From Cyanidioschyzon merolae (lineage: Eukaryota), in the NCBI GenBank assembly GCA_000091205.1, contig AP006494.2: DNA of 64,000 nucleotides; one strand, 5' to 3'. The translations under genes were made by a program, and so were the position numbers. The notes beneath the pieces were generated by a model. That model was not told the origin of the DNA and searched no databases. It saw nothing but the letters and a program-made list of their open reading frames with translations. How positions within the stretch are numbered: the stretch's first letter is position 1; every line of letters starts with the position of its first letter. Below, piece after piece: positions 53,801 to 55,724 of the stretch.

Positions 53801-54692
53801 CCTGGCGACTGGCAAGGTCTGACGCATCGTGCCTTTCTGCAGCTTCTGCTGCAAGCAGCTCTTCGAACGATGCGTCTTGATCGTCGATTTCCTTCTGAGT
53901 AGCTTTTTTGGCCTTCCGTTTCTGTTTCTTGCTCGATTTCGTCTTTGTGGATTCCTCCTCAACTGCTTCGAGCTCCGCGAGAATGGCCTCAATTTCGGCA
54001 TCTTCCTCGTGCGACACCCCCGTATTCCCTTTCTTAGCGGAGGAGGAACGTTTGGTTGTCGTGTTGCGGAGAGCATCTGTGGGTGTCCAGGTACTGGGCA
54101 CCGCACCGGCCCGCGCATAATTCTTCTCTTTCGAAGTTGTCCCTGAAATCTCTGTTCCCGAACTAGTGCCGATCGCGTTACGAAAATCTTGCGGAACCGC
54201 AAGTGCCCCCGAGGCAGGGCTTCGTGAACCGTTCAACGAGGTATTATCACCGGTCCTACCACTTCGCCTGTGACTCGACCGGGTCGAATCGCTGCTCTGG
54301 GCGTCATCAGCGTCGGAGTTACCCTCGTCCGAGAGGCCAAGTGCTGAGAAAGCTGCAAATATGGAATTTCCTGGAGCGCTTTCGCCTATCCCAAGGTCTT
54401 CGTCGACGTCGGCGGGTCTCGGAAGCTCCCGCGAGACCCCGCGTCGACCGCGTTCCGGACGGTGAACTGTCTCCGTCTTAAGGTCTGACAAGCTTTCCTT
54501 ATTTCGTTTCCCCCTAGAGGCGTCAAGAGAAAGAGTAGTGACTCCCTCGTTCCCTAAAGATTGTCGGTGATCAGTTACGTTAAAAGTGGAGTCCTCTCCG
54601 TCTAGTGCTGGTAAAGCGGGCGCTCCAGACTTCTTCTTCTTCGCCTTTTTACCGCCCTTGACGGCCACAGGCATCTCTATATCCGGTTCCAT
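50895..54692 (-). CDS. EIF5B: Translation initiation factor eIF5B (IF2 homologue)
   Basis: K/E-rich N-terminal region, then a GTPase domain ([30 protein letters not shown], NKVDR) and the C-terminal beta-barrel domains. 1265 aa. ATG confirmed at 54690-54692. Confidence 0.9.
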   Translation of the reverse strand: [1265 protein letters not shown]

Positions 54693-54750
54693 GACAGTAT
54701 CTACGTGCGCTTTACGTACACTGCACCGCCGCGGACACCATCAACGCCGT
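54665..54750 (-). repeat. Copy C of the conserved Fanzor-unit 3' element; overlaps the eIF5B start codon and 5' region
   Basis: ctctatatccggttccatgacagtatctacgtgcgctttacgtacactgcaccgccgcggacaccatcaa shares the blocks tatatcc, ggt.cat, gtat.tgc and tacactgc with copies A and B. It lies directly 3' of the RuvC-III ORF (stop at 54752). Confidence 0.5.
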
Positions 54751-55724
54751 TCTAGGTCGAGCGACGCCAACCGTGCACAGTAGTGGCGAGAAAGCCGTCC
54801 CAGACGGGGCGTCGCCAACCGACGTGCAGACGCCCCCCAGTATTTTTGGACCGGCCACCTACGGCTGCTTCCAACTTCTTCTCATATAGTTCCACTTTGA
54901 GAGGTTGTCCAATAAAGTTCGCTCTTGGCAAGTACGGAGGTCTGTTCTCCAGCATCGCACATCTCCTTATATTGATAGCGGCGTTTAAGTCACGGTTCAC
55001 AACTCCATCCGTTTCTTGCCATCATTAGTTGTGCTAATCAATGCGAGTAGTCCACGAACTTTCGCCCTCCTTTCCATTTGCTCCTCCGTCAGCGGTCCGT
55101 ACTTTTTTATATCCTCAGGGCTCCTCTGGCACTTTTCCATCTCCACTCCCTGAAGTGTACGACCCAGCTCATGGTGTGTATAGGACGTTCGGAACTCATC
55201 TACAGGTATCGTAACGAAACGCCGTGCACACTCTTTGTACGTTCTTGTCGTTGGAGCTGGCGTTGTTCCTTTTTGGGTCTTCCAGCGCCCTGCTCCATAA
55301 GCCACTACGAGCCTCTGATTTTCATCCTCCTTGAGGGCACTCAACTGATTGAAAAAATTCGCGAACGCGCGCTGCCTCCCACCGTGTAGATTCATTCGCA
55401 GACGAGCCCACCGGGGCTTTGTATACTCCTCCCACAGAGCATCCCAATGCGCAACACGAACTTCCATGAATTTCCGAAAAACTTCAAAGTCCGCTCCGCG
55501 GCTCGTCACCTCGCTCATAGCTTCCAGGTGATCCTTCATTCCTGAATTCCAAGTCTCGATTTTCTTCCTCGCATTCATTATACCAGATTCTCGATAGCAT
55601 CTCGCTCTCGAGAACCTCAAAAGACGCATGTCTTTCTGACGTACGTTACCATCAGTACCATCTTCCGCAAGCTTGGGTATTGCGATGGTGATGATATTCG
55701 TGTTCCCAGGGTCCGCGCCAACGA

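Follow-up and report, generated by a model that had tools for sequence, protein, structure and literature searches.

A decayed CMe-1A Fanzor1 transposon probably supplies the 5' end of the eIF5B mRNA in Cyanidioschyzon merolae

Promoters that read outward from mobile elements are known from bacterial insertion sequence (IS) elements and solo long terminal repeats (LTRs), and P elements and Tf1 are known to insert at promoters. In TnpB and Fanzor transposons, the right end encodes the scaffold of an omegaRNA that is read outward, with its guide part drawn from the flanking DNA; this architecture has reportedly been worked out in TnpB/IS200-IS605 and in Fanzor elements. CMe-1A is a transposon of Cyanidioschyzon merolae, present in ~150 copies of ~3 kb that are ~80% identical to the consensus and encode a Fanzor1 protein (Bao and Jurka, 2013; PMC3627910); it has no terminal inverted repeats (TIRs), its target-site duplications are undetermined, and its 5' module is shared with TE-N2_CMe (PMC3627910). 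We analyzed a 64,000-nt stretch of C. merolae DNA (contig AP006494.2 of GenBank assembly GCA_000091205.1; hereafter the window) and found one CMe-1A copy lying head-to-tail directly upstream of the gene for the translation factor eIF5B, on the same strand.

The element is the one already published, multi-copy and with copies ~80% alike, in a paper that does not give its position relative to genes (PMC3627910). Neither a CMe-1A right end next to gene starts nor a host mRNA that starts in one was found in the searchable literature. As in TnpB and Fanzor loci, a conserved non-coding block overlaps the 3' end of the nuclease open reading frame (ORF) and runs to the right end, and transcription crosses that end into the flank; here, in contrast, the crossing RNA goes on to include a complete host mRNA, the nuclease is dead, and the omegaRNA is only a candidate. 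The locus resembles elements with outward promoters in that the transposon stands immediately 5' of a co-oriented host gene whose transcript begins in the element. What sets it apart is a carrier that belongs to Fanzor1 and lacks both LTRs and TIRs, and a bias that about half of this old family shows within a very compact genome and that extends to core genes such as those for eIF5B, FtsZ and phosphoglucomutase. Both the family and its assignment to Fanzor1 were described in 2013, and the corrected and generalised observation reported here is a new behaviour of a known element type.

The evidence that the eIF5B message reaches into the element comes from RNA-like contigs. The 90%-identity cluster of eIF5B sequences includes JGI contigs of 4.0-4.4 kb that carry only eIF5B, and we analyzed six of these (L097-L102; samples 3300053652, 3300053653, 3300053660, 3300053662, 3300053663 and 3300053687). 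Each matches the window at 99.3-99.7% identity, with a 3' end that falls within 50737-50782, and one (L098) terminates in a poly(A) stretch of 34 nt that has no genomic template. Their restriction to one gene, their clustered 3' ends and this tail lead us to infer that they derive from metatranscriptomes and represent mRNAs. Every one of the six follows the genome collinearly from the eIF5B coding sequence through a short spacer and across the right end into the element, and all contain the 3' tail block of the element, which is conserved across 40 paralogues. Given how far the contigs extend, the eIF5B 5' untranslated region (UTR) measures at least 84-122 nt, of which at least 31-78 nt are CMe-1A 3' tail, and transcription must therefore start inside the element or upstream of it. 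Transposon sequence thus forms the 5' end of a host mRNA, which makes this a transposon-derived 5'UTR. The features of the junction are as follows:

50895..54692, minus strand: eIF5B gene, a single 1265-aa ORF with an ancestral Met1, from Pfam and orthologue alignment
54693..54735, minus strand: unique spacer from the right end to the eIF5B ATG, 43 nt as drawn, 52 nt if the element ends at 54745
54741-54743, minus strand: TGA in the eIF5B frame, exactly at the element boundary
54736..54802, minus strand: 3' non-coding tail of the element, the expected omegaRNA site, which holds the 5' part of the eIF5B 5'UTR
54736..57709, minus strand: CMe-1A Fanzor1 transposon copy, a pseudogene with the consensus 5' region missing
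54776, 54782, 54800 and 54814, minus strand: 5' ends of four eIF5B mRNA contigs, assembly ends that give minimum extents and not mapped starts
55042 and 55168, minus strand: 5' ends of the two longer eIF5B mRNA contigs, likewise assembly ends and minimum extents
50782, minus strand: poly(A) site of the eIF5B mRNA (in L098, 34 A absent from the genome), giving a 3'UTR of 113 nt

Short chimeric tips are present in three of these contigs (L097:1-23 and L098:1-97 at the 5' end, and L099:4052-4108); they derive from the surroundings of the ATG, from the interior of eIF5B and from ORC5. Because of these tips, the ends of the mRNA-type assemblies call for read-level checking. We excluded a further contig, L103, which takes in RPL30 as well and belongs to another sample series, as probably genomic.

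We placed the right end of the element by comparing paralogous copies. A homology search with the repaired Fanzor protein gave 43 clusters, almost all from JGI metagenomes, and a locus scan gave 368 relatives from hot-spring metagenomes, of which 80 loci were examined (103 loci in total). When segment 55100-54300 (-) was compared with the loci examined by blastn, homology to the window was lost between 54773 and 54731 in all ~78 paralogous copies, and continued beyond 54731 only in two orthologous contigs. In multiple alignments the right terminus reads ...GCCACTACTGTACAC-N12-TTCGACTTTCGAACGGCGTT, with GATGGTG next in many copies; non-allelic copies cover the window as far as 54732, and a global alignment sets the end of the consensus (position 3169) at 54745. 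These comparisons locate the right end of the element at 54736-54745, and not at 54665 as a preliminary description of this DNA had it. The eIF5B ATG (54692-54690, -) lies 42-52 nt outside this end. The spacer between them is common to no paralogue and stands directly before the ATG in all 20 orthologous contigs. By exact-match search, the 37-mer preceding the ATG occurs only in the 20 eIF5B-orthologous loci of the 103 and in no paralogous Fanzor locus.

The preliminary description had drawn a repeated element, "copy C", at 54665-54750. Its first 6-15 nt in the direction of transcription (54736/45-54750) are indeed element DNA; the remainder (54665-54735) is unique sequence, made up of the spacer and the first 28 nt of the eIF5B ORF. 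We detected no significant match to the interval elsewhere in the window: blastn of 54630-54800 returned only 9-13-mers at chance E-values, and Smith-Waterman comparison with the other candidate regions scored 20-23, against shuffle means of 18.5-20.5 with a standard deviation of ~2.7.

The eIF5B protein itself is well conserved. It contains the Pfam domains GTP_EFTU, IF-2 and EFTU_D4, and its closest named relatives are from cyanidiophyte red algae: it is 66% identical to the orthologue of Cyanidiococcus yangmingshanensis over 98% coverage and 65% identical to a second cyanidiophyte orthologue over 100% coverage. Metagenome contigs match it at 99.4-99.9% identity, and a look-up of the exact protein gave no record. 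These similarities point to C. merolae or a very close relative as the source of the DNA. The ORF cannot extend into the element, because of the in-frame TGA at 54743-54741, and the sequence holds no in-frame ATG between this TGA and the eIF5B start at 54692. The N-terminus aligns from Met1 with the orthologues of C. yangmingshanensis and a third cyanidiophyte, and the spacing from Met1 to the conserved block is kept in both. A tblastn search detected no Fanzor at the orthologous eIF5B loci of those cyanidiophytes, where the gene order is Snf7, a spacer of 1.1-1.5 kb, and eIF5B. On this evidence, the start codon and N-terminus are the gene's own and not element sequence.

The preliminary description was right about the coordinates of the eIF5B initiation codon and about the stop of the RuvC-III ORF at 54752 (TAG 54754-54752, closing an 82-aa fragment with the motif NRDLNAAINI), which is separated from the ATG by 59 nt. 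It had also placed the ATG inside the element and ascribed part of the eIF5B N-terminus to element sequence, and neither survives the comparisons above; an orthologue comparison, which it had itself named as a possible refutation, finds the N-terminus conserved without the insertion and refutes the coding claim. Its broader suggestion, that the element stands at the 5' end of eIF5B and provides some of its 5' region, is supported. The element supplies some of the 5'UTR, as the six collinear mRNA-type contigs attest, and would supply a promoter as well; it contributes no coding sequence. A short upstream ORF is predicted from the sequence of the leader:

54712..54741, minus strand: upstream ORF MVSAAVQCT*, opening in the terminal GATGG of the element and out of frame with eIF5B

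Placement at the head of a gene is typical of the CMe-1A family. After placing the right end at each locus and collapsing allelic contigs, we scored ORFs from ATG to stop (150 aa or longer) where at least 400 nt of 3' flank were available, which gave 43 distinct insertions (loci L007-L086). The sequence that follows the right end falls into four classes:

Co-oriented host ORF start within 130 nt, n=20: at 2, 6, 7, 7, 12, 23, 24, 30, 32, 34, 39 (eIF5B), 51, 52, 70, 94, 97, 101, 105, 120 and 127 nt
Co-oriented start farther away, n=7: five at 169-429 nt, one at 1919 nt and one at 3385 nt
3' end of a convergent gene next, n=14: at -1 to 1904 nt, four of them within 30 nt
No ORF of at least 150 aa called, n=2

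A co-oriented host ORF thus starts no more than 130 nt after the right end in 20/43 distinct insertions. For a random site and orientation in 43 background intergenic spacers (median 810 nt), 6.7% would be expected (binomial P = 6e-13). The left end served as a control: 2/23 copies lie within 130 nt of any gene at that end, compared with 24/43 at the right end (Fisher P = 1.7e-4). About half of the copies therefore stand at most 130 nt upstream of co-oriented host genes. The bias may reflect an insertion preference for 5'UTRs, selective retention of copies that act as promoters, or both.

The downstream genes are diverse. Pfam identifies a POT1-like protein, a phosphoserine phosphatase, phosphoglucomutase, an alpha/beta hydrolase, a Macro-domain protein, an HCO3 transporter, FtsZ, a TPT transporter, a methyltransferase and a carboxyltransferase, and sequence inspection adds HSP70, XPD/RTEL-type helicases, an SPX protein and a PI4-kinase. 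Most of these genes have in-frame stops a few codons upstream of the ATG. The HCO3-transporter gene has its ATG 6-17 nt past the right end, and its product and the Cyanidiococcus orthologue can be aligned from the N-terminal region onward; there is no room outside the element for the 5'UTR of this gene. The last 65 nt of the element together with the spacer hold fewer out-of-frame ATGs than expected (9, against 24.6 +/- 4.7 in shuffles), and in the spacers alone there are 6 where 12.4 are expected (P = 0.03).

Two further arrangements were seen among these loci. At L036:4884, L084:4882 and L030:1811 / L076:3757, the right end is flush (-1 to 30 nt) with the stop of a convergent host gene, so that the 3'UTR and poly(A) signal of that gene would lie in the element. 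At L076:1579, L013:2431 and L048:567, an inverted second right end abuts the left side of the element, as expected of head-to-head or nested copies.

We consider it quite probable that the right end of the decayed CMe-1A copy supplies the 5' end of the eIF5B mRNA, through a promoter that would lie within the element and in a placement typical of the family. The start may lie close to the end of the Fanzor ORF, around 54800-54820, or transcripts may read through from farther up the element. Outward transcription of this kind would come with the design of TnpB/Fanzor elements, whose omegaRNA takes its guide part from the flank, and it may let insertions be tolerated or kept in a streamlined genome. 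Upstream of the spacer, where the ~3-kb element is followed by other repeats, we found no recognisable native promoter. As of 2025, no endogenous C. merolae promoter had been dissected (PMC12770821).

Several observations weigh against this interpretation. The 5' ends of the contigs are assembly ends, and breaks at 54776-54814 could come from the repeat itself; the metatranscriptome origin of the samples was deduced from the contigs and not taken from metadata, and the 5' tips of L097 and L098 are chimeric. Two contigs reach 350-476 nt upstream, which indicates that some transcription enters from farther up, and such read-through could account for most transcripts. A TATA-like motif is not evident in the element, whose promoter activity is presumed. 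Structural signals of an omegaRNA are weak or absent: the RNAalifold consensus of the 3' block folds weakly (-6.6 kcal/mol, with one compensatory pair), the single-sequence fold of the right end has a z-score of -0.48, and the right end has no match in Rfam. At the level of the family, the depletion of ATGs at the right end is a common trait and not 22 independent events, and a few of the 43 insertions may be one insertion in diverged strains.

If read-through accounted for the whole message, eIF5B would be transcribed from the Fanzor 5' promoter or from host DNA beyond 57709, and the right end would be a passive leader without a start near 54800. The two mRNA contigs that extend to 55042 and 55168 are compatible with this, as are the shared strand of the Fanzor gene and eIF5B and the 905-nt region before the ORF in the consensus, which could hold a promoter. 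However, four of the six contigs end at 54776-54814, no contig spans the whole element together with eIF5B, and a leader of more than 2 kb with Fanzor frames and many ATGs would, from what is generally known of scanning, translate eIF5B poorly; we therefore judge this explanation unlikely. Alternatively, the element might be a neutral neighbour, with a compact promoter and start packed into the 42-52-nt spacer and with the RNAs at the right end representing Fanzor or omegaRNA read-out that the assembler merged with the eIF5B message. The omegaRNAs of TnpB and Fanzor elements are expected to run some 16-20 nt past the right end, and the assemblies are neither strand- nor molecule-resolved, as the chimeric tips of L097 and L098 illustrate. 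Merging, however, needs an overlap of at least one k-mer, and the two RNA species would share less than 20-40 nt; moreover, six independent assemblies are all collinear across the junction, and the 2-17 nt that separate right end and ATG at other loci cannot accommodate a promoter and start outside the element. This makes the neutral arrangement highly improbable. Least credible of all, and in effect refuted, is the strong version of the preliminary description, in which the element runs to 54665 and gives eIF5B its start codon and first residues. It draws on proximity alone, namely the 59 nt from the Fanzor-frame stop to the ATG, and is opposed by the absence of shared paralogue sequence beyond 54731, the consensus end at 54745, the in-frame TGA at the boundary and the conservation of the N-terminus in species that lack the insertion.

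Beyond eIF5B, we tentatively raise the possibility that CMe-1A Fanzor1 elements are portable promoter/5'UTR modules throughout the genome, with the outward transcription that makes the omegaRNA also driving the next host gene. Such a role would explain why about half of the copies lie at most 130 nt upstream of co-oriented host genes, essential ones included, and why an old family with copies ~80% alike persists in a highly streamlined genome.

A strong and measurable co-oriented bias before host gene starts bears on how Fanzor and guide-RNA transcription operates and how these elements persist in eukaryotes, and for one essential gene, eIF5B, there is RNA evidence of a message that begins inside the element. 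If this were general, the outward transcription needed by RNA-guided transposon nucleases would be tied to the supply of promoters to host genes, and would give a concrete explanation for the retention of transposons in a minimal genome. The idea is directly testable, because homologous recombination allows C. merolae to be modified. For engineering of C. merolae, a practical consequence is that CMe-1A ends may be part of the gene models and "promoter" fragments in use.

The copy upstream of eIF5B is decayed. We took the 3169-bp CMe-1A consensus and the 734-aa CMe-1 protein from the supplement of PMC3627910. Against consensus positions 671-3145, the window copy shows 82-90% identity; positions 671-2193 and 2117-3145 match window 57452-54765 at 82% and 90%, respectively. 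The Fanzor-like gene is read in four frames between ~57160 and 54752, and its four frame fragments match CMe-1 residues 27-734 at 62-89% identity. Relative to the consensus, the ORF has four frameshifts, caused by deletions of 7 nt at ~57155 and of 1 nt each at 56858, 56435 and 55000; the deletion at 55000 is not a sequencing error, because the independent assembly L001 shares it. The last fragment encodes 82 aa (54752-55000, -) and ends at TAG 54754-54752. It runs on to this codon because the family stop, a TAG, is mutated to TGG in the window copy (54802-54800). A strain variant contig retains the family stop (L101, position ~240, equivalent to window 54800-54802; GTCTAG, versus GTCTGG in the window), and the extension to 54752 is therefore due to a recent point mutation.

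The left part of the copy is also altered. Consensus positions 1-670, which include the canonical 5' end (CGATGACAAAACGTTT...) and the 635-bp TE-N2_CMe module, are missing, and in their place is a variant 5' module (57453-57709) that is common to a paralogue subfamily and truncated here: homology to the subfamily begins at 57705-57709, and the subfamily copies run ~190 nt further upstream. We conclude from these alignments that the window CMe-1A is a dead, partial or variant copy whose nuclease gene is predicted to be unable to encode an active protein. The catalytic motifs can still be recognised, at the level of motifs, in the order RuvC-I D, RuvC-II E and RuvC-III D:

55696-55719, minus strand: RuvC-I motif GADPGNTN, motif level only
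55183-55203, minus strand: RuvC-II motif VDEFRTS, motif level only
54968-54997, minus strand: RuvC-III motif NRDLNAAINI, motif level only
55713..56012, minus strand: 75-nt tandem repeat in the Fanzor ORF, encoding acidic 25-aa units, net +213 nt versus the consensus

The 75-nt repeat is single in the consensus and expanded in the window, and the metagenome contig L001 breaks within it. An intron was considered as an explanation of the element and rejected, since the frame shifts where 1 nt or 7 nt of the consensus are deleted and the right end is not closed by AG.

The Fanzor1 label of the element rests on PMC3627910, and independent support for a TnpB/Fanzor nuclease is weak. Pfam searches with the Fanzor fragments and with intact homologues gave at most a faint match to Cas12f1-like_TNB (E = 0.02-0.23), and the precomputed Pfam assignment of the Fanzor protein is PF26935, DUF8286. 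Sequence and profile searches of the PDB with the Fanzor protein gave no match. An AlphaFold2 model built from a 43-sequence alignment had a predicted local distance difference test (pLDDT) score of 39 and was too poor for fold comparison.

A single CMe-1A copy adjoins eIF5B, and the preliminary description's picture of an array inserted at the 5' end of this gene has to be given up. A search of the whole window with the right-end motif found one right end only, and the other CMe-1A DNA in the window is limited to a 150-nt fragment at 7056-6903. This fragment (6903-7056, -) carries a second RuvC-III motif, NRDVNAAINF, at ~7003. Directly downstream of it, 6272-6769 (-) shows 27% protein similarity to the Fanzor core and is possibly a more distant Fanzor-like remnant; the surrounding region, 5900-9300, has the appearance of degraded repeat DNA.

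The element is present in every genomic contig that reaches upstream of eIF5B (L001, L051, L067 and L087-L096). On the 3' side of eIF5B, gene order is syntenic with Cyanidiococcus (RPL30, ORC5, E2, NTP-transferase, M41). On the 5' side, the Cyanidiococcus neighbours Snf7, CLP and HAT have no match within the 64-kb window, and a DEAD-box query gave only weak window matches (~28% identity) more than 40 kb away. With the 5' neighbours missing and the 3' order kept, the synteny break coincides with the element (54693-57709, compared with L002/L003). A rearrangement mediated by the repeat family may have produced the break at the Fanzor copy. Capture or transduction of the eIF5B gene was considered and rejected, as eIF5B lies in conserved 3' synteny.

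Other repeats occur in the window. A dispersed repeat at 58831-59415, just upstream of the element, is 64-69% identical to flank segments of many Fanzor loci (L008, L015, L018, L020, L037, L052, L058, L059, L061, L075, L077 and L082). A related pair, 7922-8259 and 37404-37740, is 66% identical over 341 nt with a 92-nt core at 75%; it was tried as a relative of the Fanzor right end and rejected, with scores of 20-21 that equal the shuffle level. Two tandem 62-nt copies at 16524-16630 and 16670-16731 (+) match consensus positions 7-104, within the TE-N2_CMe module, at 77% identity, and sit 220-420 nt upstream of a 6021-aa ORF (start at 16948) in the same orientation. Directly after this ORF, a tandem array with a 43-nt unit (ACACGCATGCAATGATGCTGTGCTGTCCCGAATGCATGCAGCT) occupies 35101-35358.

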